Numbered from the stretch's first letter, positions 3,620-49,327 are shown. The stretch: 64,000 nt of DNA from a virus (IMGVR_UViG_2916199983_000001); one strand, 5' to 3'. A program made the numbers and translations. Notes: generated by a model from the letters alone, not told the origin.

Positions 3620-3634
3620 AACCAATTTGTTTTC
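3620..3634 (-). promoter_or_regulatory. AACCAA-T-TTGTTT leader motif (copy upstream of the 3536 gene)
   Basis: AGAAAACAAATTGGTT in the leader of the minus-strand operon. Confidence 0.35.
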
Positions 3635-3698
3635 TTGTTGGTGATAATACGGAAATAAAAAAGGCGTCCAAGTGGACGCCGTATCTTTGAAAAGGCTG

Positions 3699-4529
3699 TT
3701 ACTTCAACGCGATAAACGGAGTATTAGCCCCTTCAGTCATGTACTGAGGCAACTGGCCATTCCATTTGTTGATGGCTTCCAGCTCCATGACGTTCGGGTT
3801 CTGACGCAATGCTTCACCGCGCAACTTGATGGCATCAGCTTCTGCTTGAGCACGCTTGCGGATAGCGTCGGCTTCACCTTCGGCTTGTTCACGCAGCATG
3901 TTCGCTTCTGCCTTGCGCTGCTCAACTTCCTGCTGGCGCTGGAGCGTTTTCTGGTTCGCGGTCACTTTGGCATTGATAGATTCGATGACAGTGTCCGGGT
4001 AGTCTGGTTTGCCCACCCATGACAGGCTAATAACCTCAATACCTACCGGTGACATTTCTGCCTGAATGTCTTTCAGCGCATTGTCGAGCAGAGACGCCTT
4101 GCCGCCGTCGATGAACGTGTCGGTAGTCATGCGGCTGGCCAGACGGTTCAGTGAGTCCGCAATCTTCTGGCGCAGATCAGTGTCGGTAATGTCATCAACA
4201 CCTTTGCGATAGGTCTGGAATACGGTAGTTACTTTGTCGCGATTAACCAGATATGCCACACCAATTTTGTGGCCGATAGCTGTACCGTCGCTCATCTGGA
4301 ATGTGAACGGCTCATCGTAGGTTTTCATCTGTTTGAAAGTGGGGAAGGTGTACAGCTCGGTATTCAGACCAGTCCACTGACGGCCAACGCCGACAACTTC
4401 ACCGATACCTTTGTCTTCACCCAATTTGTTTACCTTAATGCCAACGTACCCCGGTTCCACGCGATCGCAGCCGGTCAGACCCATTGTGCAAATAGCAGCC
4501 AAAGCCACCGCCAGTAAACCTTTCTTCAT
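3699..4529 (-). CDS. SPFH/band-7 (prohibitin/HflC-like) lipoprotein
   Basis: The lipobox LTGC follows a signal peptide. The body is SPFH-like and is followed by an Ala/Glu/Gln/Arg-rich coiled-coil tail, as in HflK/C and YqiK. Confidence 0.7.
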   Translation of the reverse strand: MKKGLLAVALAAICTMGLTGCDRVEPGYVGIKVNKLGEDKGIGEVVGVGRQWTGLNTELYTFPTFKQMKTYDEPFTFQMSDGTAIGHKIGVAYLVNRDKVTTVFQTYRKGVDDITDTDLRQKIADSLNRLASRMTTDTFIDGGKASLLDNALKDIQAEMSPVGIEVISLSWVGKPDYPDTVIESINAKVTANQKTLQRQQEVEQRKAEANMLREQAEGEADAIRKRAQAEADAIKLRGEALRQNPNVMELEAINKWNGQLPQYMTEGANTPFIALK

Positions 4530-4532
4530 TAC

Positions 4533-4733
4533 TTACTTCTCCTTAGTTTTATTGAGTGAGTTGATATACCTTCGGCCAGCTTTTAACAAGGCAACCGGGA
4601 AGACTACAGCGATGGCAAGTCCGATAAATAAGGCCAGATCGCTTTTAGCTGAGATAAGCGATGGAACCAGTAAACCGTAGATAAAGCAGACTGATATCAC
4701 CGCTGAAACAGCCATGAGATAACCCTTGATCAT
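4533..4733 (-). CDS. small two-TM membrane protein
   Basis: 66 aa with two hydrophobic helices. It sits immediately upstream of, and is co-transcribed with, the SPFH gene. The promoter motif lies at 4766..4784. Confidence 0.45.
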   Translation of the reverse strand: MIKGYLMAVSAVISVCFIYGLLVPSLISAKSDLALFIGLAIAVVFPVALLKAGRRYINSLNKTKEK

Positions 4734-4765
4734 GTGTTTCCTTTTGTCGTTTTGGTGTAGAAATG

Positions 4766-4784
4766 ATAAGTAAGTACTTATATA
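4766..4784 (-). promoter_or_regulatory. recurrent operon-start motif ATAAGTA-ag-TACTTAT (representative copy)
   Basis: gataagtaagtacttatat. See the findings for the other copies. Confidence 0.45.
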
Positions 4785-4823
4785 TTTTCAAGTATAAAAA
4801 GGCGTCCATTGGACGCCTTGTGA

Positions 4824-5900
4824 TTACGCTTCTTCTGTCTCTGCTGGGGACGACTCTTTCGCTCGCCGTTCGTCTATCGCCTGGAGTGCTGCGATGATTT
4901 CCGGGAGTGGCTTCTCGCGGTACATCTCGACGATCTGCGATTTGGTGTATTTCTTATCGCTAATTTCCACACGCCCGCTGGCGTTCTTGGGCAGGTATCC
5001 TTCTTCCAGCATGTACTCAACCAGCGATTCGATGACGTCCAGCCCGCGAGTCGGGTCGAAGTAGAATTTCCATGAGCATTTGCCAAACGGAGGCGCGACT
5101 TTGTTTTTAATGCACTCGGCGCCAACGTCCTGTCCGATCTTCTCTTTGCCATCCTTCATGACGGATGCACCCAGACGGATGCGCACCGACGCGTAGAACT
5201 TCGGAGAGTCGCCACCCGGAGACGTAGTCGGATCGCCAAACATCACACCAATTTTGGTACGCACCTGGTTCAAGAAGATGATGCACGCGTTGTACTTACG
5301 CGCCCAGAGCGCCAGAGTAGGGAAGTTCGCACTCGTCGCGCGCGCCAGCGCCGTGTTGTCGTTCATGTTCAGCTGATCTTTGTCCTTCGCAGTGCCTTCT
5401 GCCATCTTGTCGAACTTCTCAGCCTTCGAGTTCGGAACCATCGACGCCAGAGAGTCGGCAACGATGCAGATAGGGGCTGTTTCCGGGATAAGCTCTTCGT
5501 CGCGCACCAGCTTGAGGATTGTGCCGATCAGCTCGACGGAGTCTTCGAAGGTATCCGGCTGTTTGTAAACCCACTGGCCGTCATCTTCGTCGGCGTTCAA
5601 GCCATTCGCCACCGCAAGACCAACGTCGAAACTGTTTTCGTGGTCAAGGAACACGGCCAGACCATCCTGTTTCTGTGCTGACACCATTGCAGCCGTCGCC
5701 AAAAAGGTTTTACCGGCGCTTGGTGGCCCGAAGACTTCAACGATACGCCCACACGGAAAACCGCCGTCGTAACGTCCGGAAATGGCTTTGTTCAGTGGAG
5801 GGAAACCGGAGTCAATCCAGTGGGAGACCTTCTGGATCTCGTCATTGCTGCCGATTTTCTTTTTCAGCGCCAGTGCCAGTGCGGATTTGCCTTTTGCCAT
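4824..5900 (-). CDS. RecA-family recombinase (RecA/UvsX-like)
   Basis: Walker A GPPSAGKTFLA. The core aligns with E. coli RecA (FLNQVRTKIGVMFGDPTTSPGG, KFYASVRIRLG, KNKVAPPF). Confidence 0.8.
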   Translation of the reverse strand: MAKGKSALALALKKKIGSNDEIQKVSHWIDSGFPPLNKAISGRYDGGFPCGRIVEVFGPPSAGKTFLATAAMVSAQKQDGLAVFLDHENSFDVGLAVANGLNADEDDGQWVYKQPDTFEDSVELIGTILKLVRDEELIPETAPICIVADSLASMVPNSKAEKFDKMAEGTAKDKDQLNMNDNTALARATSANFPTLALWARKYNACIIFLNQVRTKIGVMFGDPTTSPGGDSPKFYASVRIRLGASVMKDGKEKIGQDVGAECIKNKVAPPFGKCSWKFYFDPTRGLDVIESLVEYMLEEGYLPKNASGRVEISDKKYTKSQIVEMYREKPLPEIIAALQAIDERRAKESSPAETEEA

Positions 5901-5902
5901 GA

Positions 5903-6169
5903 TTAGGCTCCTTTTGATTCGTTGATTCGCTTCGAAGCAGCGGCTTCGTCAAACTTGATTGCGTCGTGGTTCAGGTGTTTGGCGACGCGAGCGATGATCT
6001 TCACGACCTGCTCGCTGACCAGCGCGAACTCGCGCTCAGTTGCAGAAATGCCAGCAGCGCCCAGAATGTTCGGCAGCGCCATCACAGCGTGCTCGCCGTG
6101 GCAGAAGACAATCTCTTTAGCCAGCATGGTTGGCGTAGTTGCCCCGCCATTAATGATGGATTTCAGCAT
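5903..6169 (-). CDS. hypothetical protein
   Basis: 88-codon ORF, translationally coupled between the FEN gene and the recA-like gene. Confidence 0.4.
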   Translation of the reverse strand: MLKSIINGGATTPTMLAKEIVFCHGEHAVMALPNILGAAGISATEREFALVSEQVVKIIARVAKHLNHDAIKFDEAAASKRINESKGA

Positions 6170-7164
6170 CAGCAGTACCTCTCAAATGGCAGAACAAACA
6201 CTTCCAGATCTTCCAGAAACGACCGGAAATTCAGCTCGTAACACATCTGTTCGAAGGCATTCATGTCGCGTGCGCCTTTAATCGACTCGATTTCGCTGGG
6301 TGGGAATTTTGTGTCGATAAGGTTCATCAGCATCATGTTGCGCTTAAAGGCTTCGAGCATCCGGCAGCCCGTCTTCTCGTTGAAGGCGTTCTTTGCCAGC
6401 TTGTTGAATGCCGTCTTATAGCGACCCTTATTGATGACAATGGAACCGTCGTTAATGCCGCGTACCATTGCGGCCACGCTTCCCCACTCATGAAGCAGCT
6501 CTTTCGCGCCACCATCACCAATGCCGCCGACGCCTTTGATGTTGTCCGAGTTATCGCCCTGCAACGCTTTCGCTTCCAGAAACGCGCGTGGTGTTGGCAG
6601 ACCTGTCAGCTCTGCGAACTGTTCGAAGTTCACCTGCTTGTGCTTGGCATCTTCACGCAGGCTTACCCAGCTCACATTCTCGCGAACCAACTGGAGCCAG
6701 TCGCCATCGCCCGTCAGCAGGTAGATGTGATCGACGGTCGGCTGCGGAGCCAGGCGAGAGACCAGCATTCCAGCCAGGTCGTCCGCTTCTGCGTCCTTTG
6801 CAATGAGTTGGTTAACGCCCAGCGCGGTCATCATTTTCAAGATGTACGGCTTCTGGATGGCAAAGCCTTCTTTCATCTTCTTCATATCCGGGTCGTCATC
6901 GCGATTCGCTTTGTACTCCGGGTAGAAGTCGCGACGTTTGTCGCTGAATCCATCCCACAAGATCATTGGCCGGGCATGGAGAATTGAGGCGTAACGACGA
7001 ACGTTCTTCACGAAGCCAAAAGCCGCCTGAACTTCCATCTCGCCGTTGTGTAATTTGTCGGATTGCTGGTGGTAATAGCCCAGGCTGTTACCGTCCACAA
7101 AGAGATAATTCACCGGTACACTCCTTCCAAAAAGTAAGGCGTCCGTAGACGCCTTACTGGTCAC
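6169..7164 (-). CDS. flap endonuclease / 5'-3' exonuclease (T5 D15-like)
   Basis: N-terminal LFVDGNSLGY, then LLTGDGDWLQL, then GDNSDNIKGVGGIG, which looks like the helix-3-turn-helix. The layout matches the T5 exonuclease. Confidence 0.8.
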   Translation of the reverse strand: MTSKASTDALLFGRSVPVNYLFVDGNSLGYYHQQSDKLHNGEMEVQAAFGFVKNVRRYASILHARPMILWDGFSDKRRDFYPEYKANRDDDPDMKKMKEGFAIQKPYILKMMTALGVNQLIAKDAEADDLAGMLVSRLAPQPTVDHIYLLTGDGDWLQLVRENVSWVSLREDAKHKQVNFEQFAELTGLPTPRAFLEAKALQGDNSDNIKGVGGIGDGGAKELLHEWGSVAAMVRGINDGSIVINKGRYKTAFNKLAKNAFNEKTGCRMLEAFKRNMMLMNLIDTKFPPSEIESIKGARDMNAFEQMCYELNFRSFLEDLEVFVLPFERYC

Positions 7165-7173
7165 GTTATGGGA

Positions 7174-8202
7174 TTACAGAGCGTCCAGTTCAGCCAGCAG
7201 GTCGTCGAGACCTTCGTCAGCTGGTGCAGATGCAGCGGCAGAAGATGCTGAAGCACTTGCAGCTGCGGCGGCTTCCGGAGCTTTAACTTCTTCCGGTTTA
7301 GTTTCCGGTTTGAACTCAGCTTCAGCGGCACGCAGGATCTCTTCATCAACCAGGCTGGTGGACTCTGGAGCCGGAGTGTGTGCTGTAGCGACAGCAGCTG
7401 CACCTTCCGTATGACCAGTGATAGAGCCAAAGCCTGGCAGTTCAGCAGCGGCTGATTTTGCAGCGGAAGAAATGGCCGGAGACGACATTGTTGCTGCCGG
7501 AGCCGCGATACCAATCAGACGACCCATAGTGCGAGCTGTAGACAGCAGACGGGTTTCGTCAGCCTGGTTCGCGTATGCGATCAGATCGTGTTGAGTAGTC
7601 CATAGCTTCTCAGGAATGTCGCCTTTGTAGACTTTACGTTTCGGGGATACGTCGTACTTGGTGTCACGACCGGAACCGGTACGCTTAATCAGGAACGCAT
7701 AGCCTTCTTCTTTGCTCAGTGGGTTGCCGATATCATCCGCAATATCTTCGGACATCACTTTGCAGATATCGTCGAAGACCGTAGACGGCAGCTCAATCAG
7801 CTGGCATTTCTCTGCATCCGCAAAGTCTTCACGCGCAGACAGAACACCGTTGACCAGATAACGCGGTGTGGCACGCATACTGTTAATGCGCTCTTCCATC
7901 GCTTTATTGCCCTTAAAGCGAGCACGACCTTCCATAACCATCTCACACAGCTGGCAAGCGTGGCCGTGGGTGTGCTGTTCGCAGATGTAGGCGGTGGTTA
8001 CATCTTTGCCTTCCTCATTCTGATGCTTAACGTAGTGCATACCGAAAGTCTGGAAGAACACGCCATTCGGGTCGTCCTTGTTCGGAAAAATGCGCAGATA
8101 GTTATTGCCGTCTTTCAGACGGGTCAAATCAACGTTATTGCCACGTTTAGAAGCAATATCGCCACGGGTCTTGTTAAGCAGATCAAGTAATGACTTAGAC
8201 AT
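7174..8202 (-). CDS. ssDNA-binding protein, T4 gp32-like
   Basis: The N-terminal region resembles gp32 (NYLRIFPNKDDPNGVFFQTFGMHYVKH vs gp32 AVIRFLPSK..APFAILVNHGF). It has a His/Cys cluster and an acidic C-terminal tail DDLLAELDAL. Confidence 0.65.
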   Translation of the reverse strand: MSKSLLDLLNKTRGDIASKRGNNVDLTRLKDGNNYLRIFPNKDDPNGVFFQTFGMHYVKHQNEEGKDVTTAYICEQHTHGHACQLCEMVMEGRARFKGNKAMEERINSMRATPRYLVNGVLSAREDFADAEKCQLIELPSTVFDDICKVMSEDIADDIGNPLSKEEGYAFLIKRTGSGRDTKYDVSPKRKVYKGDIPEKLWTTQHDLIAYANQADETRLLSTARTMGRLIGIAAPAATMSSPAISSAAKSAAAELPGFGSITGHTEGAAAVATAHTPAPESTSLVDEEILRAAEAEFKPETKPEEVKAPEAAAAASASASSAAASAPADEGLDDLLAELDAL

Positions 8203-8321
8203 GTATTTCTCCTTGTTGTGATTGTGGCCATTGGCGCTATGCGCGTTGGGCGTTCGTTTATTCGTGGCTCTTTCGAGCGAGAAGAATGATAGATCAGTAC
8301 TTACTTACGATCTAGCATAAA

Positions 8322-8753
8322 TTAACGGGGAGAGTGGAAACGTTCGGCGCCCAAACGTTCAATCTCCACGATAGCCATTTTGGACGCCTGGACAATCATG
8401 TCGCGGCGGTGAGAGAAGGCGGCTACAGCGTGCTTGTACAGATCTGCAATGTGCCGGGCATCGTCGAGTTTCTGGCGCTTTGCGAGGTATTGCGGGTTGG
8501 TTCTAACCTTCGCCTCCAGTACGGACTCATTAAACTTAATGCCGTTCATACTCAGGTTCTTACGCTCATTGTCGTAGATTTTCGCCTCAATCGCATCGAG
8601 AGAGAGTTTTGCATCTGCGACCTCGCGTTCTGCCCGCGCCAGCTTAGAGCCGTATTCCATCAACAGGCGCGGTTGCTGACGCCAGACTTCTTCAAGATTG
8701 TCGCGGTCGAACTCCAGATCGGACATGATTTTTTCGTAGATATCGGTGCTCAT
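8322..8753 (-). CDS. hypothetical protein
   Basis: Internal ATG at 8753 gives MSTDIYEKIM.... The longer track ORF extends to 8942 and would overlap the plus-strand moron. Confidence 0.45.
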   Translation of the reverse strand: MSTDIYEKIMSDLEFDRDNLEEVWRQQPRLLMEYGSKLARAEREVADAKLSLDAIEAKIYDNERKNLSMNGIKFNESVLEAKVRTNPQYLAKRQKLDDARHIADLYKHAVAAFSHRRDMIVQASKMAIVEIERLGAERFHSPR

Positions 8754-8911
8754 GGTATTAAGTTTCCACTTACATTGATGTGTTAATTTTATCATGAGTA
8801 ATGCAGGGTGTTGCATGTTGGGGCAAAAAATGGAGGTTATACAGATCTCCTGTTTGGTACTATTGTCGCTATACAAAAATGGTGGATACCGTCCCCAAAT
8901 AAGAGGCTCAA

Positions 8912-9586: not shown

Positions 9587-9589
9587 ACA

Positions 9590-10363: not shown

Positions 10364-10739
10364 AACCCAGGGACTCCATTTTGAAAACCAAATGATTTAA
10401 TTCAGTACCATCGTTGGTGGGTGGTATGTTCCCAAATTTTCCAAAATAAACAAGATCATCCCTACAAAAACTGTGGGTCTGGAAAGGTGTTCAGTTGGAG
10501 GGAGATTGTGAGAATGGAAAAATAAATATTGCACAAAGTTTAAGGTCATGACTTAATAGTGGCGTCGGTTTGCAAGACAGACCTTATGAAAGCAGTTTTA
10601 GTAAAGCAGTCCGTAGTTCAGGTGTTATCCAACAGATTTCCCTTCTTCGTGAGTCTCCTCCTAAGTGCCCAAGTAAGTCCCACTCTATCAGACCAAATTC
10701 GCCGCGTTGTGTGGCTCTCGAATCAAGAAGGTAATATCT

Positions 10740-10955
10740 ATGTCTAACAAAATGACTGGTTTAGTAAAATGGTTTAACGCTGATAAAGGCTTCGGCTTTA
10801 TCACTCCTGCTGATGGTAGCAAAGATGTGTTCGTTCACTTCTCTGCAATCCAGAGCAATGACTTCCGTACCCTGGATGAAGGCCAGAAAGTTGAGTTCTC
10901 TATCGAGAATGGCGCTAAAGGCCCGGCAGCAGCAAACGTTGTAGCCTTAAGCTAA
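10740..10955 (+). CDS. cspA: cold-shock protein CspA family
   Basis: [23 protein letters not shown]...VFVHFSAIQ matches the CspA RNP1/RNP2 motifs. An SD AAGGTAATATCT precedes the ATG at 10740. A long 5' leader follows, as in cspA. Confidence 0.85.
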
Positions 10956-11085
10956 TACACTCTGGTAATCCATTTGCTGCGATAACGAAGACGGCTTTAG
11001 CCTGAGTAGACAGAACGATGTGATTATCAGACGGTGAAAGGCTGATCTGGCGGCATTCGCCCGACCAACACGCCACCAATAAATG

Positions 11086-11110: not shown

Positions 11111-11112
11111 GT

Positions 11113-16487: not shown

Positions 16488-16583
16488 GTGTTTTTCCTTA
16501 CTGTTTGTCGTTCGTGGGGTATATCTTATATAAATATATTAGTCTGTATAGTAAGTGATTACTTATTTTTACGGGTAAAACAA

Positions 16584-18998: not shown

Positions 18999-19014
18999 AA
19001 AACAATTTGTTTTC
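18999..19014 (-). promoter_or_regulatory. AAACAA-T-TTGTTT palindromic leader motif (cobT-like gene copy)
   Basis: On the coding strand it reads GAAAACAAATTGTTTTAATAACAAGGAAATTCTCATG. Confidence 0.45.
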
Positions 19015-19089
19015 TGATGTGCGTAATTTATCACTGTACGAACAGGCGACTAAGCTGTTCGTACAGGCTTCTATCGGCAGGAATGTGTT

Positions 19090-19302: not shown

Positions 19303-19566
19303 TTCATATCATCCAACTGAACACATTTGAAAGTTTGTCAATACTACTACCTATTGTATCAATATGGAATGAGTCTATATCAGATACGTATTACTTTTGC
19401 CTGTAAGCTAATAGTGACAAATTGCCTAAAAAACATAGTATAATAGCGGTGTCCCAGGGGATTAGTACCTATCGAAATTAAATAGATAAGTCTTTACAAC
19501 CCTGGCCTTTGCTGTAATATCAGTAAGCACTTACCAGAGATAAACAAAACACGCAAGGTTTACTAC

Positions 19567-19953
19567 ATGGCTACCAACGAAACAGAGATCAAACAAGGTC
19601 GCTACGCAGCTTATATTGACTCGTTAATCACAATCTCGCCTAAAAGTCAGGCCACCATTGCCAAAGAGGTTGGGTACAAGAACGCCAACAATCTCTCCCT
19701 CATTAAAAGCGGCAAAATCCCGCTGCCGGTAGATAAAGTTCGAGCTTTAGCTAAAGCGCTAGATGCAGACCCGGTTCGACTGATGCTGATGGTTCTGGAA
19801 GAACGCCACCCTGAGTTGCTCGAATTTTTTCGCGAAGAGGGAACTGCGCCTCTCTCCGCTGATGAAAAACTTGTTCTAGAAGCGTTCCGTAACCGTTTTA
19901 ACGGTCAGCAGGGCGCATCAGAAAAGGTGGTCGAGGCCATCAAGTCACTGTGA
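19567..19953 (+). CDS. HTH (XRE-like) DNA-binding protein
   Basis: SQATIAKEVGYKNANNLSLIKSGK fits a helix-turn-helix. It follows an AT-rich region with a promoter-like TTG..TATAAT (about 19420..19445). Confidence 0.55.
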   Translation: MATNETEIKQGRYAAYIDSLITISPKSQATIAKEVGYKNANNLSLIKSGKIPLPVDKVRALAKALDADPVRLMLMVLEERHPELLEFFREEGTAPLSADEKLVLEAFRNRFNGQQGASEKVVEAIKSL

Positions 19954-26622: not shown

Positions 26623-27463
26623 TTCTACTTATCACCTCCGTCAAAAATGGGGGTATTACCGAATGACCCTTTCTCCAGCCCGCTGCAAATTCAGACGGTG
26701 TCTGATAATTCAGCGTGGAGTGCGGGCGGCATTCGTTATAATCCTGCCGCCAGTCATTAATAATTTTCCTGGCATGAACGATATCGCTGAACCAGTGCTC
26801 ATTCAAACATTCATCGCGAAATCGTCCGTTAAAGCTCTCAATAAATCCGTTCTGCGTTGGCTTGCCCGGCTGGATTAAGCGCAACTCAACACCATGCTCA
26901 AAGGCCCATTGATCCAGTGCACGGCAAGTGAACTCCGGCCCCTGGTCAGTTCTTATCGTCGCCGGATAGCCTCGAAACAGTGCAATGCTGTCCAGAATAC
27001 GCGTGACCTGAACGCCTGAAATCCCAAAGGCAACAGTGACCGTCAGGCATTCCTTTGTGAAATCATCGACGCAGGTAAGACACTTGATCCTGCGACCGGT
27101 GGAAAGTGCGTCCATGACGAAATCCATCGACCAGGTCAGATTGGGCGCCGCCGGACGGAGCAGCGGCAGACGTTCTGTTGCCAGCCCTTTACGACGTCTT
27201 CTGCGTTTTACGCCCAGGCCACTGAGGTGATAAAGCCGGTACACGCGCTTATGATTAACATGAAGCCCTTCACGGCGCAGCAACTGCCAAATACGACGGT
27301 AGCCAAAACGCCTGCGCTCCAGTGCCAGCTCAGTGATGCGCCCTGATAAATGCGCATCAGCAGCCGGACGGTGAGCCTCATAGCGGCAGGTCGACAGGGA
27401 TAAACCTGTAAGCCTGCAGGCACGACGTTGCGACAGACCGGTCGCATCACACATCAACATCAC
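26588..27463 (-). CDS. IS407-group transposase OrfB (DDE)
   Basis: ...WSMDFVMD...IRTDQGPEF...[23 protein letters not shown]...RPHSTL.... Confidence 0.85.
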
Positions 27464-27821
27464 GGCTTCCCGCTTCTGGTCTGTCGTCAGTACTTTCGCC
27501 CAAGAGCCACCTGAAGCGCCTCTTTATCCAGCATGGCTTCGGCAAGCAGCTTCTTGAGTCTGGTGTTCTCTTCCTCAAGCGACTTCAGGCGCTTAACTTC
27601 AGGCACCTCCATACCGCCATACTTCTTACGCCAGGTGTAAAACGTGGCATCGGAAATGGCATGCTTGCGGCAGAGTTCACGGGCGGGTACCCCAGCTTCG
27701 GCTTCGCGGAGAATACTGATGATCTGTTCGTCGGAAAAACGCTTCTTCATGGGGATGTCCTCATGTGGCTTATGAAGACATTACTAACATCGGGGTGTAC
27801 TAATCAACGGGGAGCAGGTCA
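26590..27821 (-). mobile_element. IS3-family (IS407-group) insertion sequence, copy B, inverted relative to copy A
   Basis: The outer terminus read in IS orientation is TGACCTGCTCCCCGTTGATTAGTACA, ending at 27821. Its orfB 3' end overlaps the 3' end of copy A orfB. Confidence 0.8.
27487..27750 (-). CDS. IS407-group transposase OrfA
   Basis: [30 protein letters not shown]...[15 protein letters not shown].... Confidence 0.85.
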
Positions 27822-28501: not shown

Positions 28502-28576
28502 TGGCGATGGTGGGTGGACTCGAACCACCGACCAGTTGATTAACAGTCAACCGCTCTACCACTGAGCTACACCATC
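28502..28576 (-). tRNA. tRNA-Asn (anticodon GTT), CCA encoded
   Basis: Hand fold: acceptor GATGGTG/CACCATC, D-arm GCTC-AGTGGTA-GAGC, anticodon stem GTTGA/TCAAC with loop CTGTTAA, T-arm GGTGG-TTCGAGT-CCACC, discriminator G, then CCA. Confidence 0.85.
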
Positions 28577-38439: not shown

Positions 38440-38588
38440 TTCCGCACTCCCGTCTCGTGAACAACCCGATACAGACGCTTACCGATGCGAAGCGTTTTGG
38501 TTTTCAGTTCCTGCCTGACCAGGTCGCGACAGATACTGAAGCCGAGGGCCACGCCCCCAGCAAAAGATAATAGGATGTATGGAATCAT
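38436..38588 (-). CDS. small membrane protein (50 aa)
   Basis: MIPYILLSFAGGVALGFSIC.... It is coupled to both neighbours. Confidence 0.3.
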   Translation of the reverse strand: MIPYILLSFAGGVALGFSICRDLVRQELKTKTLRIGKRLYRVVHETGVRK

Positions 38589-38800
38589 TAGAACGCCCCC
38601 GCCTCAGTCAATTGCTGCAACAGTGAGTGTCCTTTTTCAGTGAGTTGATAGTTCTCCACACATCCCTTTGGCGAAACGTTAGCGACAAGATTCATGCGTT
38701 CCAGTTTGGCGCGGGTCTTTGGCTTCCAGTTAGCGTAGAACTCCTTCCACTGGCTGATTTCACGCAGAGTTTCTTTCTCCCGTTTACTTAGCATGATCAT
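38588..38800 (-). CDS. hypothetical protein
   Basis: 70-codon ORF. Confidence 0.4.
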   Translation of the reverse strand: MIMLSKREKETLREISQWKEFYANWKPKTRAKLERMNLVANVSPKGCVENYQLTEKGHSLLQQLTEAGAF

Positions 38801-42923: not shown

Positions 42924-44118
42924 TTCCCCGTACCTTGCTTTGTAGCTCCAACTGTCTGGAGTACGGCTTGGCACGATAATAGGCTTTTAGTATCTGCTCT
43001 GGCGTCGCGTCGCCGGGGTCGAGACCTTCTTCGCCCAGACAGGCCACTTTGACATTCAGTCCGATGCTGGTGAGACGTTTGGCCGCTGACATGGTGTTGC
43101 GGATCGCTTGCTTTTCGCTGTCCCACATCATGATGACGTTGCGTAATCCACGCGCCTTGAGCGTCAGGAACGCGCCTAACTGATCTTCAGCGTCCTCATT
43201 CATATTTCCGGACAAGTGCATCCCGAACGTGCCAATTGGCTCTACATAATCCCGCAGCGTCTCTTCGTCGAAGATGGCTCGCTTCACGCCCATTACGTCA
43301 AATGCCCCTTCACACACAACGACCGTTTGTTTTCCGACTGCATTGTGGCCGTTGTAGAGAAACTTACCCGACGCCGGCAGCTGCATCGGAAAGAGGTAAC
43401 GGCGTTCTGCTGCACCGGTAATGTCACGCCCTTGGAAGGTCTTCATCACGCCATCCAGATCGTAAACCGGTATCAGGATGCGCATATCAAACACCTGCCC
43501 TTTGACCTGGTCTGTGTACGGATCGACGTATGCGTGCTTGCCTTCGACGCAGTAACGCAGATCAAAGTATTTGGCCAGATCCGGGGAGATATGGCGCTCC
43601 ACCAGATAATCAGGAAGACGACCGTCAATGGGGAGTTCGTAATGTCGCGGGAGAGCTACTGGCCCTTCGAGTTCAACCTTGCTGGCCAGCACGACCTCTT
43701 CCTTCTTCGGCGCCCATCCTTGTGAGATCAGCGCGTTCTGGACGTACTCTTCAAAATCGCGACGGGATTTGCCGCTGTAGTGCTTGAGGAAGACCAGCTT
43801 GTTGAACTGAATCTCTTCGGGATGATCACCAGCAAAGCATTTGCCGACGCCATTGGTCAGGTTGAAATAAACCTTCCAGTTTGAGCTGCCGCATACCGGA
43901 CACTCCTTGATATTCACCTCACGTCCACGAGTACTGACGCCACCACGACGGTAGATGATTCCTTCCATATCGAGCCATTGTTCAAAATCCAGCTCGGTCA
44001 GTAATTCTTTCAAGTCGCTCACGTTCTTAACCCTACTTTTTGCAGGTAATATCTCGATAAGCCTCGGTATTTGAATACCATAAAGGCTCATGTGTTTTTT
44101 CTTTTGTGGCTTTGGCAA
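42907..44118 (-). CDS. DNA primase (zinc-ribbon + TOPRIM)
   Basis: CPVCGSSNW...C looks like a CHC2 zinc finger. A TOPRIM-like C-terminal half follows. The start is uncertain: TTG at 44118 or ATG at 44091. Confidence 0.7.
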   Translation of the reverse strand: MPKPQKKKHMSLYGIQIPRLIEILPAKSRVKNVSDLKELLTELDFEQWLDMEGIIYRRGGVSTRGREVNIKECPVCGSSNWKVYFNLTNGVGKCFAGDHPEEIQFNKLVFLKHYSGKSRRDFEEYVQNALISQGWAPKKEEVVLASKVELEGPVALPRHYELPIDGRLPDYLVERHISPDLAKYFDLRYCVEGKHAYVDPYTDQVKGQVFDMRILIPVYDLDGVMKTFQGRDITGAAERRYLFPMQLPASGKFLYNGHNAVGKQTVVVCEGAFDVMGVKRAIFDEETLRDYVEPIGTFGMHLSGNMNEDAEDQLGAFLTLKARGLRNVIMMWDSEKQAIRNTMSAAKRLTSIGLNVKVACLGEEGLDPGDATPEQILKAYYRAKPYSRQLELQSKVRGIKALI

Positions 44119-44182
44119 AAGAGAAAATTTGTTCTCTTATGGAGACCGGCGTGGAGAGCGTTTCTCCACGCCTTCTTTTTTT

Positions 44183-45523
44183 TTAGAGGACGTCCATAAT
44201 GCGTTCGATGAATCGCATTTGTTCGAGGTTCTGCTTAACGCGGATGCTTACGCCGCCTTTCTGGTTACGTGAACCAGCGAAGTACAGACGCGCTTCGCCT
44301 TTCGCTTCTTCCTCTTCCGTTTTGTTGATCGTGATAACGAGGTCAGCGATACGCACCTTCTCGATGTTGTCCGCTGCGTGCATCATTGTGGCCACCTCTG
44401 AAGCACCACCTTCCCTGTTAGTCTGCGATGCAGTGATGCCGGCAACGTTGTGTTTGTCGTACAGCGCACGCAGGTCAGTGTAGATGCTGCGAATGTTGGC
44501 GCGGTCGTCGCGGAGGTCGTAGCTGGCACGCATCAGGTCGGCGTAGTCGACCACGACCATGTCGGGGATCATGCCATTGGCTTTCATGCTGCCCAACATA
44601 CGATCCAGATCTGCAGGCGACATGCTTCCGGACGGTCGTTCAACAATCCACAAGCTCCCCACGCCTTTCGTCGCGCCCAGCTCTGCCAGTTTGCGATGGA
44701 CGTCGTCGCGGCGCTCCACCAGCTTGGACATTTCGGTCTCAGACAGACGGGCGTCAAAGCGATCTGACAGAATGGAGGTGTGAACTTCCAGCGACAGATA
44801 CAGGACGTTGTAACCGGCAAGCGTGGCGTTGATGGAGAACTCACCCATCGCTGTCGATTTACCAGACTTCGCGAAGCCCATGAACAGCACCATTTCACGC
44901 TTTGCCCAGCCTTTCTGGTAAAGCAGCTTGTCGAGCAGCGGTAGACCCGTCGTGATGCTGTTTGGCACGTAATCGTCGGATGCTTCATACTCACGCGCCT
45001 TGTAACGCTCTGCTGATTCAGAGAAGTAATCGTAAATGCCGGTCGCTTCGTTAGAGCCGATTTGCTGGACTTTGGCCATGATTGCCATTGCGCCCTGGAA
45101 ATCGCCCTTCTCTTTCATCTCAGCCGCTTTAATCAGCGCGTCGTCGAACGCTACGCTTTTGGCAAACGTCGCGACCTGGTCGACCATGTACGCCGTATCT
45201 GACAGCTTCTCCGCGAGAATCCGCTTAAACGCCTCAACGACGTCGGGGAACAGCTCTTCGCGGATCGTCTTATCGCGTTTGGCGCGTTTGAGCATGTCGA
45301 GGATGGCCGACGATGATGGTGCGCTCTTATACATTCTGTAGTAGCCCGACACCATGTTCACCAGAATGGCGTTGGCCGCATTGGAGAACTGGTTTGGCGC
45401 AACCAGATCACCGGCGCGAGTGAGAAATTCATGGTCGCGACAGAAGTAGGCTGCGAGTCGATTCTGGAAATCGTCGTCGAACTCTTCAGACAACCCTCGT
45501 CCTGTGTGGCAAAGTTCGGTCAT
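44183..45523 (-). CDS. DnaB-like replicative helicase
   Basis: Walker A GFAKSGKST. The RecA-like C-terminal domain has DnaB motifs (VVDYADLM, SQTNREG). Confidence 0.85.
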   Translation of the reverse strand: MTELCHTGRGLSEEFDDDFQNRLAAYFCRDHEFLTRAGDLVAPNQFSNAANAILVNMVSGYYRMYKSAPSSSAILDMLKRAKRDKTIREELFPDVVEAFKRILAEKLSDTAYMVDQVATFAKSVAFDDALIKAAEMKEKGDFQGAMAIMAKVQQIGSNEATGIYDYFSESAERYKAREYEASDDYVPNSITTGLPLLDKLLYQKGWAKREMVLFMGFAKSGKSTAMGEFSINATLAGYNVLYLSLEVHTSILSDRFDARLSETEMSKLVERRDDVHRKLAELGATKGVGSLWIVERPSGSMSPADLDRMLGSMKANGMIPDMVVVDYADLMRASYDLRDDRANIRSIYTDLRALYDKHNVAGITASQTNREGGASEVATMMHAADNIEKVRIADLVITINKTEEEEAKGEARLYFAGSRNQKGGVSIRVKQNLEQMRFIERIMDVL

Positions 45524-45542
45524 GTGCTTTCCTTTGGTGCTT

Positions 45543-45557
45543 AAACAATTTGTTTTC
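45543..45557 (-). promoter_or_regulatory. AAACAA-T-TTGTTT palindromic leader motif (helicase gene copy)
   Basis: On the coding strand it reads GAAAACAAATTGTTTAAGCACCAAAGGAAAGCACATG. Confidence 0.45.
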
Positions 45558-45583
45558 TAATACTAAAAAAGCCAAATAGGGGA

Positions 45584-46309
45584 TCAACAGAATCGCCGTG
45601 CTTCTTCCAGTTCTTCCGGGAAGTGCGCGTAAATCACACGCTCAGGCACGATTTCCATCAACCAGACAGCGGAGAAGATGATGCGGACGCGTTTGTCTCG
45701 GGTAATGCCACGCAGACGCTCCAGAACCCACTCAAAATAGCGTTCTTGAATCGGGTCGTCCTGCATGTCTCCCAGATGCTTAAAACTCACCAGAGAGTCA
45801 TCCAGACGGGTTACAGCGCGTTTGGCTAACTTCTCTTCGAAAATCTCGATCAGCTCGGGCTGCCAGAGATGCTGGGGGCGAGGTAATTTGTCCCACAGAC
45901 GGCGTGCAGCTGCGGAAAGAACGGTAGAAATAAAGTAGTCATAAGAGCAGCAGTACTGGTCGGCAAACTGGCGTGCTTTCCAGAGAGACGTTTTGTTGGC
46001 CGTCGACAGCTCCTGATACGGCACACGTTTCAAACCGGTAGTGAATTGGGCCGTCTCATAGTGCTCGCGGCCATGCGACAGCATGATGTATGAGTACTGG
46101 CGCTTGTATGCCTCAGTGAAGAGGCATGTGGCCATAAGCGGGTGCATGTCGCGGTAATCGAACCACTTTGTCTCGAACAGCTCTGCCTCATCCTTACAGC
46201 GTGACAGCCCAATATTCTCGGCCACCCACTTGTCCATGACTGTGGTGTCCCACTCGGTCATGAAGTCGTACTGGTCGTTGTTAATAGTGTTAAAGAAGAT
46301 CTGGCTCAT
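45584..46309 (-). CDS. hypothetical protein
   Basis: 241-codon ORF. The promoter motif lies at 46321..46342. Confidence 0.45.
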   Translation of the reverse strand: MSQIFFNTINNDQYDFMTEWDTTVMDKWVAENIGLSRCKDEAELFETKWFDYRDMHPLMATCLFTEAYKRQYSYIMLSHGREHYETAQFTTGLKRVPYQELSTANKTSLWKARQFADQYCCSYDYFISTVLSAAARRLWDKLPRPQHLWQPELIEIFEEKLAKRAVTRLDDSLVSFKHLGDMQDDPIQERYFEWVLERLRGITRDKRVRIIFSAVWLMEIVPERVIYAHFPEELEEARRFC

Positions 46310-46500
46310 GTGCTTTGCTCGATAGGTAGTTACTTACTTATCATAATGAGCGAATCATAGCGACTGGAGACTGTTTTTGGAAGTGGAAACGGAAGGGAAT
46401 GTGTCTGGGAAGTTGGCATAGAAAAAGACCTGCTCCCGTATAAATAATAATAAGTAACTTAGTATTTATATACGAAAACAGGTTCACAGAAGTATAATTT

Positions 46501-48204
46501 TTAAATTGTTTTAATAATATACCTTACCCTAAATTCATTTAAAGAAGACAATTTAGAAATCCTTACAAGTGCATCTTTGGCCTTTCTGGTTATCTGCTCT
46601 TGCTCACTGGTGGGATTAGTTAAGTTGTCAAATTTTAACAGACCATTTTTGACTAGATTCATCACATCTCGTTCACATGTTGTCATCCAATTGAAATAGT
46701 CATCCTCACTAAAATTATTCAAAGCATCAACATCTCTTGGGTTATAAGAATTGCCTGCACTTAGCTTAATTAGTATATCTTCTAAAGAAATCCCTTCATA
46801 TTTAAGTGCAACGATTCGATTTTTAATGACACTTGACAATTTTTCAAAATTTATATGTGCATCTATTAAATCTGAATACGCTAAATTTATATCACATCTT
46901 TCGAAAAATGCATCAGTATATTTCGTAATGTAGTCGTCACAATCTTCCCCTAGAGATTCCAACATTTCCATTAAACTGGATACCCTACCCAATGGAAGAT
47001 CACAAAGATTTTCTTCAAATAGCTTTTTAATTTCAGAAATAAAAACAAAATCATTCTTTGCAAAGGACCCAGTATAAATAGCCCAAACATCATTAACTTT
47101 ATTATTCAATGTGATATTAGTATAATCTTTATTCTTCTTTTGGATTACTTCACCAAGATTACTTGCAGCGATTTTATAACCATGTTTTAGATGAAAGTCA
47201 ATATCATCATCAAACACACCATCGCATCTATTAAAAACATCTTCGACATTACCTACAAATAGATGCACAGGTGTTTTGTTATCTACTTCATCGTCTGGAA
47301 TGTAGTATGCATTTGTATTAATGAGAGTTTTGAACTCTTCGTAATCGACGTCATGAACCCCAGAATAGTAGACAAATGAAAATAAAGCTACTCTATTGAC
47401 AAAGTCAGCTCTAACCTGTTCATGTGCTTCGCAAAGGTCTTTTTCATATTCTGCAAGCATATTTTTAATTTTAATTAATATCCGAATGTTTTTAATATCC
47501 AAATGCAATACAATTTCTTTTAAATATTTATAGTTTTTATCATTTTTAAAAAAAACTTTATCCAGGTTATCAATGGCCATTGGGGAAAACATAATATCTA
47601 GATCTACAATTTTCTCTCTGTACTCTGAGAATTGTTTTTCCTCTTTTGTCCCCTTGAGATTGTTTTCATTATAAACCAGTATTATTTTACAGTTTTTCTT
47701 TCGGGCTAACTCATCAATCAACCCCATGATATCCTTTATCTCTAAAGAGTTACCTTTTCTTTCTAAATCGTCAAAACAAATTACATAATCCTTTACAAAC
47801 GAATATTCAACAGCCGAAACAAAATTTCCCGCTCTAAAACCTATAGACGTATTGTCGAAATATTTTATAATGAACTTAGATAATCTATTATATTTTAAAC
47901 AATAACAAATTTTGGAAAGGAATTTCCCATTCACTATTTTATCTTGTTCGACAAGTGTCTGCCTATACTTTTTTTCATTTATTGGAGTCGCCAAATGAAA
48001 TATTTCTTTCTTAATTTCATTTATTGAGTTTTTTCCAAAAAGAGAAATATATGAGTAAGCACTTTTATTTAGCGAATTAACATTTTTGTGATAGTACCCA
48101 TTCCAAAAATGTGTTTTCCCTATCCCCCAATCACCTTTTATTACAGCAACCTTATTGTCTGAATTGAAAAAAGTGTTTAAGACTTCATCCAAATTTATCA
48201 TCAT
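46501..48204 (-). CDS. KAP-family P-loop NTPase
   Basis: Walker A VIKGDWGIGKTHFW and Walker B VICFDDLER. The gene is about 30% GC, far below its neighbours. Confidence 0.65.
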   Translation of the reverse strand: MMINLDEVLNTFFNSDNKVAVIKGDWGIGKTHFWNGYYHKNVNSLNKSAYSYISLFGKNSINEIKKEIFHLATPINEKKYRQTLVEQDKIVNGKFLSKICYCLKYNRLSKFIIKYFDNTSIGFRAGNFVSAVEYSFVKDYVICFDDLERKGNSLEIKDIMGLIDELARKKNCKIILVYNENNLKGTKEEKQFSEYREKIVDLDIMFSPMAIDNLDKVFFKNDKNYKYLKEIVLHLDIKNIRILIKIKNMLAEYEKDLCEAHEQVRADFVNRVALFSFVYYSGVHDVDYEEFKTLINTNAYYIPDDEVDNKTPVHLFVGNVEDVFNRCDGVFDDDIDFHLKHGYKIAASNLGEVIQKKNKDYTNITLNNKVNDVWAIYTGSFAKNDFVFISEIKKLFEENLCDLPLGRVSSLMEMLESLGEDCDDYITKYTDAFFERCDINLAYSDLIDAHINFEKLSSVIKNRIVALKYEGISLEDILIKLSAGNSYNPRDVDALNNFSEDDYFNWMTTCERDVMNLVKNGLLKFDNLTNPTSEQEQITRKAKDALVRISKLSSLNEFRVRYIIKTI

Positions 48205-48226
48205 TTATGCTCTATTTGACAAATGT

Positions 48227-48250
48227 AAAAGGCGCCTCTCAGCGCCTTTT
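48227..48250. terminator. rho-independent terminator after the par operon
   Basis: AAAAGGCGCctctcaGCGCCTTTT. Confidence 0.6.
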
Positions 48251-48252
48251 AC

Positions 48253-48612
48253 TTAACCTTTCTTCATCAGCTCACGCTTGATTTCATCGGTGCGCATCGT
48301 GACGTCGGCAGCGGTGATCGCCTCGTTCAGTTTCACGATGTCTTCGATTTCCTGCGGCGACTTCTCTGCCAGATGGAAAATGGCTGCGCGAATCACGTCA
48401 GAACGGGTGAACTTCTCGAAACGAGGGATGAACTTCATCATCTCCAGCAGATCGAAGTACTCGTCTTCCAGCGACATTGTGCGGCTCTTAATCTTCTCTT
48501 TCCCACGAGTCGGACGCCCCTGCGGTCTGACTGGCTGGCGCATTGGGGTGCTGCTTTTTACCGGTTCTTCCGGATCTTTGCGCTTTGCAAGGTCTCCCAT
48601 TCTCATGGACAT
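48253..48612 (-). CDS. partition protein, ParG/ParB-like small DNA-binding partner
   Basis: Coupled to parA (shared nt 48612). It has a basic N-terminal tail and a C-terminal RHH-like segment. Confidence 0.5.
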   Translation of the reverse strand: MSMRMGDLAKRKDPEEPVKSSTPMRQPVRPQGRPTRGKEKIKSRTMSLEDEYFDLLEMMKFIPRFEKFTRSDVIRAAIFHLAEKSPQEIEDIVKLNEAITAADVTMRTDEIKRELMKKG

Positions 48613-49277
48613 TATTCTTCCTCCAGACTCATGATGTAATCTACAAACTCTTCAAACTCGGCTTCTGCCTTCTTATCGCGTTCGGCGCCAGTCATTTCAA
48701 AGATAGAACGACCTGCCTCTTCCGCATCGTCATAAACGTTACGGTTGTACAGGTTAACCGGCGCAGCCTCGATGCCGAATGTCTCGACAATTTCTTTCGC
48801 CGCCAGAATACGTGACGCCTGGGAAGGCAGTGACGGACACTGGTTCACTACCGCGCGGATCTTCACAGTCTCGTTCACGTTGCGAACGTTGTCGATAATC
48901 GGGTCGATATCACGCAGGGATTTCAAATCACGACGCTTAGGGCGAAGCGGGATAATGATGAAGTCTGCCAGCAGCATCGCTTGTCGCTGAATTTCGGAGT
49001 CAAAACCACCCGCATCAATGACGACGTAATCGTAGCGTCCCTTCAGCGATTTGATGTGTTTGACGATGTCGTCCTGAACGTATGCGAACGGGATTAGCTC
49101 AAGATCTTCGTTCTGGCGACGGTCTTCGCACCAGCTCGTTGTGGTGCGCTGAATATCAATGTCGGTGACGTGAGTCTTCTTTTTCTTTTTAACTTTGAGG
49201 CATACCGCAATTTGCTGGGCAACGGTAGATTTGCCTGGGCCGCCTTTTGTGCCGCCAACCACAATGATCCTGGTCAT
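48612..49277 (-). CDS. parA: ParA/Soj-family partition ATPase (type Ib)
   Basis: Deviant Walker A GGTKGGPGKST. 221 aa. Confidence 0.85.
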   Translation of the reverse strand: MTRIIVVGGTKGGPGKSTVAQQIAVCLKVKKKKKTHVTDIDIQRTTTSWCEDRRQNEDLELIPFAYVQDDIVKHIKSLKGRYDYVVIDAGGFDSEIQRQAMLLADFIIIPLRPKRRDLKSLRDIDPIIDNVRNVNETVKIRAVVNQCPSLPSQASRILAAKEIVETFGIEAAPVNLYNRNVYDDAEEAGRSIFEMTGAERDKKAEAEFEEFVDYIMSLEEE

Positions 49278-49312
49278 TGGTGAGTTCCCTTTGCGTGAAT
49301 TATTGTCGTATG

Positions 49313-49327
49313 AAACAACTTGTTTTC
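49313..49327 (-). promoter_or_regulatory. AAACAA-c-TTGTTT leader motif (parA copy)
   Basis: AGAAAACAAGTTGTTTC lies 36 nt upstream of the parA ATG. Confidence 0.4.

Follow-up and report, generated by a model that had tools for sequence, protein, structure and literature searches.

Background

Partition-linked proteins that serve both in segregation and as global repressors are known from IncP-1 plasmids, where KorB acts at the 13-bp palindrome TTTAGCSGCTAAA (OB), and from pSM19035, which encodes omega. In type Ib partition systems, whose ParA is small, the protein that binds the centromere represses its own operon. The C1 regulon of P1 holds lytic functions off via many operators, each overlapping a promoter, over a genome of roughly 100 kb. 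Sites at +1 to +20 are typical of repressors; known activators dock at the -35 region or further upstream. Regulation at the RNA level is represented by FljA of Salmonella, which was reported to act on fliC mRNA (PMC2652032).

The stretch of DNA analysed here (the window) covers the opening 64 kb of an SSU5/pHCM2-like phage-plasmid of 119.7 kb (119,726 bp). It carries four palindromes that are copies of a repeated 13-base DNA switch, most likely a repressor docking site and not an RNA signal, that heads about 17 genes or operons and is present in all relatives.

A repeated palindrome on the minus strand

The motif AGAAAACAAnTTGTTT was found on the minus strand at all four places where a first-pass annotation had noted a palindrome, and the downstream genes named there are correct, one per site: a DUF2591 operon, a cobT-like gene, a DnaB-like helicase gene and parA. 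The palindromes are real, and their number is far above the chance expectation for such a sequence: the 16-mer with up to three mismatches has 8 matches in the window against 1.03 expected, a count reached in none of 100 shuffles. Across the whole plasmid, the core AAACAANTTGTTT occurs in 12 exact copies and in 18 copies with at most one mismatch, against 0 and 0.43, respectively, in first-order Markov simulations. The plasmid has about 17 distinct palindrome sites, the four noted ones being a subset, and the column statistics given below were taken from 54 sites in four genomes.

Copy 1 (AGAAAACAAATTGGTT, 3620..3635, minus strand), with one mismatch in the right arm, precedes the DUF2591 small-gene operon (3536 down to 1664, minus strand) and has orthologous sites in Cyrano (58601), pMT1 (50082) and pCAV (86821). 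A -10-like TATTAT (3644..3649, minus strand), read from the sequence, is located 8 nt upstream and is followed by the spacer CACCAACA, which by column counts is common to about ten other copies; directly upstream of this promoter module, an intrinsic-terminator-like hairpin with a T-run (3663..3680, minus strand) makes up a terminator-promoter cassette. Copy 2 (AGAAAACAAATTGTTT, 19000..19015, minus strand) is perfect and precedes the cobT-like start codon (18980) by 19 nt, with a putative extended -10-like box, TGATAAATT, upstream (19025..19033, minus strand). It is kept in at least 30 related contigs, degenerate in the Cyrano group and missing from pCAV-like contigs. Copy 3, of the same perfect sequence (45543..45558, minus strand), lies 19 nt before the start codon of the DnaB-like helicase gene (45523) and is kept in Cyrano, pCAV, L275 and L276 although the flanks diverge. 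A presumed -10-like TAGTAT (45560..45565, minus strand) abuts this copy, and the operator would here overlap the transcription start. Copy 4 (AGAAAACAAGTTGTTT, 49313..49328, minus strand) is situated 35 nt before the parA start codon (49277). A putative parA promoter (49341..49369, minus strand) can be read as TTTACA (49364-49369), 17 nt and TAGGCT (49341-49346), the latter being kept in five of six lineages; the consensus promoter scan did not call it. Such a placement would put copy 4 at about +6 to +21.

Architecture of the putative promoter module

The palindrome sites follow terminators, and the order of the module is terminator, -10-like box, about 10 bp, palindrome and SD. In most sites the distance from the palindrome to the -10 box is near-constant, with T at -11 in 51 of the 54 sites (1.64 bits), inside TAAT at -14 to -11, whereas the start codon lies anywhere from 12 to 83 nt further downstream (83, 19, 19 and 35 nt for copies 1 to 4). 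The helicase and parA promoters have a -10 spacing unlike that of the cassette type, which counts against the explanation preferred below. An SD close behind the motif, as described earlier, is seen at three window sites (about 7-20 nt) but not at 3620, where the start codon is 83 nt off. The likely promoter that had been placed ahead of each motif was recovered as a -10-like box only: owing to their poor -35 boxes, none of the four sites was called as a full sigma-70 promoter by the consensus scan. Motif promoters could therefore depend on an activator, which is a further point against the preferred explanation.

Both arms of the dyad are conserved in the 54 sites (1.3-2.0 bits each) while the centre base is unconstrained (0.03 bits), which is the signature of a dimeric binder of double-stranded DNA. 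Some promoters possess a second, inverted copy ahead of the -10 box and behind the terminator, at a centre-to-centre distance of 51 bp (93372/93321 and 88871/88820 in the plasmid, 93120/93171 in Cyrano), and the inverted upstream copies have an AGA extension on the non-coding strand. The terS pair is spaced by 25 bp both in the plasmid and in Cyrano. A mini-unit of motif plus terminator also occurs, at 94057-94095 in the plasmid and at 85833 in Cyrano.

The motif RNA alone gave no stable fold (0.0 kcal/mol), the variant sites with TTGGTT, GATGTTT and ATAACAA break pairs and have no compensating changes, and no Rfam families were found at the palindrome sites. A regA-like gene, which the first-pass annotation had suggested looking for, was not found across the plasmid (tblastn, best E = 1.5). 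Its first proposal, a RegA-like translational operator or mRNA-binding site, is thus not upheld, since a RegA homologue is lacking, the sites stay clear of the SD and AUG, they are tied to the -10 box and the RNA is unfolded. Its fallback, the operator of a DNA-binding regulator, is favoured by the dyad symmetry, the anchoring to the -10 box and the inverted upstream copies.

Conservation and expression in the lysogen

The motif is identical at orthologous promoters of Cyrano (about 80% DNA identity), pMT1, pCAV1099-111, in which UvsW is 71% and the CI-like protein 40% identical, and two further contigs with FljA-like proteins 56-58% identical; its positional conservation in relatives, on which the earlier proposal depended, thus stands. 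Upstream of parA in six diverged lineages, only cATAAGAAAACAwnTTGTTT is conserved. pMT1 keeps palindrome sites without the ParA partner, but its split is too recent for this retention to be informative. A related Pseudomonas phage with a syntenic replication module, ZY21, does not carry the motif.

In RNA-seq of the Cyrano lysogen the background is 9.8 (PMC9928086, S1 table), and genes behind the motif are at that level: terS 7.1, cobT 7.8, nrdB 12.9 and CYRAN_58 5.7, with CYRAN_85, 87 and 101 at about 7 (PMC9928086). parA, at 50, is the exception to this silence, and its partner is at 89 (PMC9928086).

The ParA partner and a model of repression

The parA gene (48612..49277, minus strand) encodes a 221-aa ParA/MipZ-type ATPase of the type Ib size class, in which no Pfam DNA-binding domain was detected. 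The ParA partner (48253..48606, minus strand) is a protein of 117 aa whose basic N-terminal arm, together with the blocks ..SRTMS.EDE.. and RSDVIRAAI, is invariant in all lineages; it has no detectable homology to KorB (ParB-HTH) or omega/ParG. The putative DNA-reading strand of orf92 varies. The partner is the leading candidate for the binder of the palindrome. As for KorB and omega, the same operator is found at the parA promoter and at about 16 further plasmid sites.

We favour, with a probability of roughly 0.55, the reading that a repressor common to the family binds the palindrome as a double-stranded DNA operator, the ParA partner being the most likely candidate binder. The palindrome AAACAAnTTGTTT, extended to AGAAAACAAnTTGTTTa, would then belong to a reusable promoter module. 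Its parts, in order, would be a terminator, a -10-like box whose -35 counterpart is weak or missing, a spacer of about 8-10 bp (often CACCAACA), the palindrome at approximately +1 to +20 from a presumed transcription start, the SD and the gene. About 17 such modules would head small 'early' genes, operons for replication and nucleotide metabolism (helicase-primase, cobT-cobS-dnaE and nrdB), the terminase/structural operon, with two palindrome copies, and parA. The predicted binder, a dimeric or tetrameric protein encoded by the phage-plasmid and conserved across the SSU5/pHCM2/pMT1/pCAV family, would repress rather than activate, stopping RNA polymerase where transcription starts or immediately beyond and keeping the genes silent during the plasmid life of the element; an inverted second copy, five helical turns (51 bp) further upstream, might tighten the hold by cooperative binding or looping. 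The ParA partner (48253-48606) may autoregulate parA via copy 4 and silence the other promoters via the same site, a dual role analogous to that of KorB of IncP plasmids or omega of pSM19035.

Several observations count against this repressor model. Known type Ib centromeres are repeat arrays, whereas here there is a single palindrome per site, and a separate iterated array, GGTAATGGC, with 6-7 copies at 91.3-91.7 kb of the plasmid, could be the real centromere. Two other small proteins, orf70 and orf88, are as conserved as the ParA partner. The stronger proposal, that the partner serves segregation as its adaptor and also silences the lytic promoters throughout the family, with the CI-like repressor running a second operator family, GTAAGnnCTTAC, is put forward only tentatively. 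If it is true, one 13-bp site would serve both the partition of SSU5-like phage-plasmids, among them pHCM2 of S. Typhi and the pMT1 backbone of Y. pestis, and their decision between lysogeny and lysis.

Other binders and mechanisms

The transcribed motif, AGAAAACAAnUUGUUU, near the mRNA 5' end might instead be an RNA-level operator at which the element's FljA-family protein would block translation or destabilise the mRNA, as FljA reportedly does to fliC mRNA. This is the earlier idea with a protein other than RegA; it is the main rival, though we consider it unlikely. The FljA-family gene (plasmid 85424-85951, outside the window) gives a full-length match to Flag1_repress (PF03614, E = 1e-96), encodes a tandem Sm/Hfq-like fold and belongs to the core of all SSU5-like elements, those from non-motile Klebsiella and Y. 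pestis among them. The motif lies inside the presumed leader, in many cases with the SD 2-20 nt behind it, and the succession of an A-rich and a U-rich run is reminiscent of Hfq-type sites; moreover, the fliC leader of Salmonella/Citrobacter contains CAAGUUGU, the central 8-mer of the motif, and the motif-plus-terminator mini-unit could be a decoy RNA. However, a conserved two-arm dyad with a free centre is not needed by a single-stranded RNA binder, the motif is fixed to the -10 box and variable relative to the SD, and the inverted copies, with their AGA extension on the non-coding strand, are found upstream of the -10 box. The fliC match spans only 8 of the 13 core positions (the 8-mer CAAGTTGT is shared, and 4 of the 12 specified core positions are mismatched), the pCAV FljA-like protein is only 35% identical while the motif is unchanged, and the gene is only about 2-fold over background in the lysogen. 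The same DNA operator could also be bound by a CI-like immunity repressor, with operators scattered in the style of P1 C1. This protein (19567..19953, plus strand) is an HTH protein encoded beside the integrase in a cI/cro-like divergent arrangement, is annotated as a putative repressor in Cyrano, where its lysogen expression is 96, has a recognition helix, NANNLSLIKSG, that is conserved even in pCAV, and lies about 550 bp from copy 2. What makes it an improbable binder is that in 11 lineages the stretch between the CI-like and cro-like genes, which is its own control region, lacks the motif, and other palindromes, GGTAAGnnCTTACC and TATTGnnnCAATA, are conserved there instead. A different conserved palindrome, GTAAGnnCTTAC, is found both in this control region and at the promoter of the uvsW operon, which is expressed in the lysogen. 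It is dispersed over 19 sites and never occurs in the same intergenic region as the AAACAA motif; such dispersal and separation fit binding of GTAAGnnCTTAC by the CI-like protein, to which this second palindrome probably belongs.

The motif might also be a temporal signal instead of a lysogenic operator, marking a class of promoters that need a lytic-phase, phage-encoded activator or shut-off factor such as orf70 or orf88. The first of these (38588..38800, minus strand) is a family-conserved protein of 70 aa, winged-helix-like by eye, with a faint HTH_45 match (E = 0.076), and is silent in the Cyrano lysogen (6.4, background 9.8); the other (plasmid 79613-79879) is also small and winged-helix-like by eye, and is encoded just upstream of the terS double site. 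Both are 57-76% conserved in pCAV, the orf70 operon is headed by a motif promoter, -10 boxes are present with poor -35 boxes, and a missing activator would explain the lysogen silence equally well. Such a class is nevertheless quite unlikely, as the site at +1 to +20 is in the position of a repressor, the motif spans early-type, replication, structural and partition genes rather than one class, and parA is expressed in the lysogen although it has the motif. A host protein conserved in Enterobacterales as the binder would explain how the motif stays invariant while the element's own regulators diverge, and the motif is indeed invariant across hosts and across lineages with regulators 33-40% identical. 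We know of no E. coli or Salmonella regulator with this consensus, though, the motif is lacking in Pseudomonas phage ZY21 despite the syntenic replication module, and conserved candidates are encoded by the element itself, which makes a host binder very improbable.

Comparison with known systems

The likeness to T4 RegA lies in the A/U-rich leaders of replication genes and in the T4-like gp32-like, UvsW and UvsY proteins of the element; the differences are that tblastn of T4 RegA (from NC_000866) against the whole plasmid revealed no homologue, and that the sites are palindromic, promoter-tied and do not overlap the AUG. With FljA control of the fliC 5'-UTR in Salmonella flagellar phase variation the element shares a protein of the FljA family, and the target would be in a short leader before the SD. 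However, identity between the phage-plasmid clade and true FljA is only 34-37%, the fliC leader resembles the motif at its centre alone, and motif symmetry and promoter anchoring argue for DNA.

Like P1, the element is a phage-plasmid with dispersed operators. The P1 operators, however, are asymmetric 17-mers bound by a C1 monomer, whereas here the site is a 13-bp dyad, the region of the CI-like repressor itself is without the motif, and two dispersed operator families are present. KorB and omega resemble the proposed system in having a short palindrome that recurs at about a dozen promoters or more across the replicon, the partition operon's own among them. The ParA partner differs from both in that its homology to KorB (ParB-HTH) or omega/ParG is not detectable and its binding to the palindrome is a candidate role. 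Instead of being at about -40 or far off, the sites would coincide with the transcription start or follow it, and the genes under control would be the lytic genes of a phage.

Element and its family

Bases 1-64000 of the Citrobacter plasmid pRHBSTW-00570_3 (NZ_CP056401.1; 119,726 bp) are identical to the window; the remainder of the plasmid (records L001-L003) was added, and motif counts refer to the whole element. The plasmid carries an IncFIB/pHCM2-type repA, phage genes for tail, capsid and terminase, a T4-like recombination/replication set (gp32-like, UvsW, RecA-like, DnaE, CobS/CobT-like, helicase-primase, NrdAB) and plasmid functions, and is therefore an SSU5/pHCM2-like phage-plasmid, with 98% identity to Salmonella phage SSU5 in the helicase region. 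Such elements occur commonly in Salmonella, E. coli, Klebsiella, Enterobacter and Citrobacter, with 746 plasmid records related to the window region returned in one search. They carry resistance genes as cargo, in this case an ars operon within a Tn3-family transposon. Rfam gathering-score matches in the window were a cspA thermoregulator leader (10564-10998, with cspG), an IS1222-type frameshift element (27403-27520, IS3-family ISSen4) and a tRNA (28505-28576).

Number and distribution of the motif

The four AAACAA-T-TTGTTT palindromes described in the first-pass annotation were all found, on the minus strand, upstream of the DUF2591 operon (3635-3620, AGAAAACAAATTGGTT), the cobT-like gene (19015-19000, AGAAAACAAATTGTTT), the helicase gene (45558-45543, AGAAAACAAATTGTTT) and parA (49328-49313, AGAAAACAAGTTGTTT). 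With up to three mismatches allowed, the 16-mer has 8 matches in the window versus 1.03 expected, a number reached in 0 of 100 shuffles. Over the full plasmid we counted 12 exact copies of the 13-mer core AAACAANTTGTTT, and 18 when one mismatch was allowed, versus 0 and 0.43 in Markov-1 simulations, well above the background for an AT-rich 13-mer. Once double counting of the palindrome is removed, about 17 distinct sites remain: besides the four window sites, two precede the small terminase gene (terS), one precedes nrdB, and the small-ORF region (88-98 kb) holds a dense cluster. A 16-mer scan of viral contigs was not discriminating, as it gave many single chance matches together with contigs of ~100 kb that hold several.

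No paper containing any of the four motif variants was found in the literature searched, and the papers on SSU5 and phage-plasmids that were searched say nothing of operators; both the regulation of SSU5-like elements and the motif are essentially undescribed in the searchable literature. The motif would define a regulon of ~17 promoters that can be read straight from the sequence of any family member.

Conservation among relatives

The motif is present at orthologous promoters in every SSU5-like element examined, namely the E. coli phage-plasmid Cyrano (~80% DNA identity), Y. pestis pMT1, two distant contigs (neighbouring FljA-like protein 56-58% identical) and the very diverged K. oxytoca pCAV1099-111, and among these relatives the flanks diverge while the motif is unchanged. 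Cyrano carries it at terS (two copies), parA, helicase, nrdB, the equivalent of the DUF2591 operon and many small-gene promoters; its cobT site is degenerate. The site upstream of cobT is kept in at least 30 related viral contigs and missing in pCAV1099-111-like ones. In pCAV1099-111 itself, about 20 sites of the same architecture accompany proteins of 71% (UvsW), 74% (ParA), 40% (CI-like), 35% (FljA-like) and 33% (the small protein orf92) identity. Relatives with an altered motif were sought for a co-varying regulator, and none was found among the SSU5-like lineages examined, even pCAV1099-111.

The motif is absent from the syntenic Pseudomonas phage ZY21 (Nickievirus), and its presence in all SSU5-like elements examined therefore marks it as a family-wide signal of enterobacterial phage-plasmids rather than an immunity-specific one. 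The promoter design of ZY21 (L206), whose replication module is the syntenic part, differs from that of the SSU5-like family: -10-like boxes lie inside GC-rich intergenic inverted repeats, e.g. GTGCGCTC-ttacaat-GAGCGCAC.

The promoter module

Site alignment reveals the palindrome as the 3' part of a longer module, which consists of an intrinsic-terminator-like hairpin with a T-run (as at 3663-3680), a -10-like box (GATAAT, TATTAT or CATAAT), a spacer of 8-10 nt, often (A)CACCAACA, the palindrome AGAAAACAAnTTGTTTa and the SD. Across 54 sites from four genomes, a T stands at -11 from the motif start in 51 (1.64 bits), both dyad arms hold 1.3-2.0 bits per position and the central base holds 0.03 bits; the -35 region is merely T-rich. 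A consensus promoter scan called nothing at the four window sites, and the promoters are inferred from the conserved -10-like box, its place after terminators and the downstream genes. Given a correct -10 assignment, the palindrome spans about +4 to +19. The helicase promoter has a -10-like TAGTAT abutting the palindrome, and a putative parA promoter (TTTACA, 17 nt, TAGGCT) would put the parA copy at about +6 to +21. Start codons lie at variable distances (12-83 nt): an SD within 2-25 nt, as first described, holds at three window sites but not at 3620, where the start codon is 83 nt off. Several promoters have an inverted second copy upstream of the -10 box, 51 bp centre to centre (plasmid 93372/93321 and 88871/88820; Cyrano 93120/93171), and the two terS copies are separated by 25 bp in the plasmid and in Cyrano alike.

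Other signals lie close to these sites. For the motif promoter at plasmid 88829, the -35 region holds a perfect DnaA-box sequence, TTATCCACA (~88848-88856), which is present in pMT1 too. The structural-gene operon has a leader with a GC-rich hairpin followed by TGTTTT, situated downstream of the terS double operator and ahead of the terS start codon (plasmid 79420-79457; kept in Cyrano, altered in form in pCAV1099-111). This hairpin resembles a leader terminator, and antitermination may therefore be required as well for late expression. At plasmid 94057-94095 and Cyrano ~85790-85833, a perfect motif copy is preceded by a -10-like ATTAAT and directly followed by a terminator hairpin (AAGGCCAC...GTGGCCTT and a T-run); this unit could produce an RNA of ~40 nt or simply be a terminator between convergent genes. 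An inverted repeat with a 12-bp stem (CTGTACGAACAG / CTGTTCGTACAG) at window 19034-19066, between the cro-like gene and the cobT promoter, has no T-run downstream and is kept in relatives; one lineage (L236) shows compensating changes (CTGCGCGAA / TTCGCGCAG).

Recognition as DNA or as RNA

The module points to recognition of the motif as double-stranded DNA by a symmetric protein, because the dyad is symmetric with a free centre, is anchored to the -10 box and not to the SD, and has inverted partner copies in presumably untranscribed DNA. The first-pass annotation had preferred a RegA-like translational operator; a search of the whole plasmid found no homologue of T4 RegA, and the -10 anchoring and dyad symmetry speak against that reading. 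Its fallback, the operator of a DNA-binding regulator, is the one favoured by symmetry, promoter anchoring and the inverted upstream copies. An RNA hairpin was rejected as the function of the motif, being unstable and without an Rfam match at the sites: by itself the motif RNA gives no fold (0.0 kcal/mol), the best pairing within leaders is a marginal 5-bp stem, and variant sites break the would-be pairs without compensation.

An RNA target might instead be bound by the element's own FljA-family protein ('repressor of phase-1 flagellin'; plasmid 85424-85951, L002:35424-35951, outside the window), which would make the motif a translational operator. This protein matches PF03614 over its full length (E = 1e-96), its gene is a core gene of the SSU5-like family, and its model predicts two tandem Sm/Hfq-like domains, consistent with the action of FljA on fliC mRNA (PMC2652032). 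Proteins of the phage-plasmid clade share 34-37% identity with true FljA, and the gene persists even where the plasmid host is non-motile Klebsiella or Y. pestis; a phage-internal RNA may therefore be the target. The Salmonella/Citrobacter fliC leader does contain the motif's central 8-mer, CAAGTTGT, yet 4 of 12 specified core positions differ, and the E. coli fliC leader has no motif match. Since symmetry, promoter anchoring and the inverted upstream copies also argue against an RNA operator, we regard this explanation as unlikely.

Expression in the Cyrano lysogen

In published LF82 transcriptomes (PMC9928086, S1 table; background median 9.8), genes behind motif promoters were at background in the lysogen: terS 7.1, cobT 7.8, CYRAN_58 5.7, nrdB 12.9, CYRAN_85/87/101 ~7 and helicase 21. 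Other values were 50 for parA, 89 for the ParA partner gene, 96 for the CI-like gene, 114 for orf92 and 18 for the FljA-like gene. Ciprofloxacin is reported to induce Cyrano 39-fold. Silence of the motif genes fits repression, and a missing activator would fit as well; stress-induced expression in the Cyrano table showed no clear difference between the two operator classes (the AAACAA motif and the second palindrome described below).

Candidate binding proteins and a second palindrome

Every small regulator-like protein of the element was considered as a binder. The best fit among them is the 117-aa ParA partner (48253-48606, minus strand), a candidate for the AAACAAnTTGTTT sites. ParA itself has 221 aa and no detected DNA-binding domain; in type Ib partition systems, where ParA is small and lacks such a domain, autorepression falls to the small partner. 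When the region upstream of parA is aligned across six diverged lineages, the sole invariant block is cATAAGAAAACAwnTTGTTT. The partner has a basic arm and the blocks ..SRTMS.EDE.. and RSDVIRAAI, invariant in all lineages, and is expressed in the lysogen; no homologues were found outside the family.

In the CI-like HTH repressor (19567-19953) the recognition helix is conserved. The AAACAA motif is absent from the repressor's own control region in 11 lineages; that region holds the conserved palindromes GGTAAGnnCTTACC, at +1 of its TTTACA-16-TAATAT promoter, and TATTGnnnCAATA. A second dispersed element, GTAAGnnCTTAC, extendable roughly to ATAGGTAAGyACTTACCTAT, has 8 matches in the window versus 1.06 expected and is conserved in Cyrano and pCAV1099-111 (19 in the plasmid, 12 in Cyrano, 15 in pCAV1099-111). 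Window sites are at 2720-2731, 4770-4781, 16551-16562, 19523-19534, 52030-52041, 57008-57019 and 63943-63954, with 12 more in the rest of the plasmid. It sits in terminator/-10/operator cassettes similar to the AAACAA ones, at +1 of the promoter of the CI-like gene itself and within the uvsW-operon promoter spacer; no intergenic region contains both this element and the AAACAA motif. The simplest assignment is that GTAAGnnCTTAC is probably the operator of the CI-like repressor, which would bind these sites.

Three other small proteins fit less well: orf92 (plasmid 84660-84938), of ribbon-helix-helix appearance by eye, is expressed in the lysogen but has a putative DNA-reading strand that varies between lineages, and the well-conserved orf70 and orf88, of winged-helix appearance by eye, are silent in the lysogen. 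About six AT-rich CAGTAT(A/T) repeats at window 49500-49660, between parA and a DUF1778/GNAT toxin-antitoxin pair, are absent from the same place in Cyrano and pCAV1099-111 and are thus probably not a conserved centromere. A 1.4-kb non-coding region at plasmid 90700-92100 (L002:40700-42100), conserved in Cyrano and distant contigs, contains GGTAATGGC in 6-7 spaced copies along with further short repeats, and adjoins two AAACAA-type sites (91720-91758) that are 25 bp apart; its candidate functions are lytic origin, pac site and centromere.

Comparison with known systems

Should the binder be the partition protein, plasmid maintenance would be linked to prophage silencing, and that protein might double as a silencer of the lytic genes. 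The AAACAA set is classed as a putative promoter-proximal repressor operator regulon. It does not belong with the RegA system and resembles in function the dispersed-operator regulons of P1 (C1), IncP KorB and pSM19035 omega.
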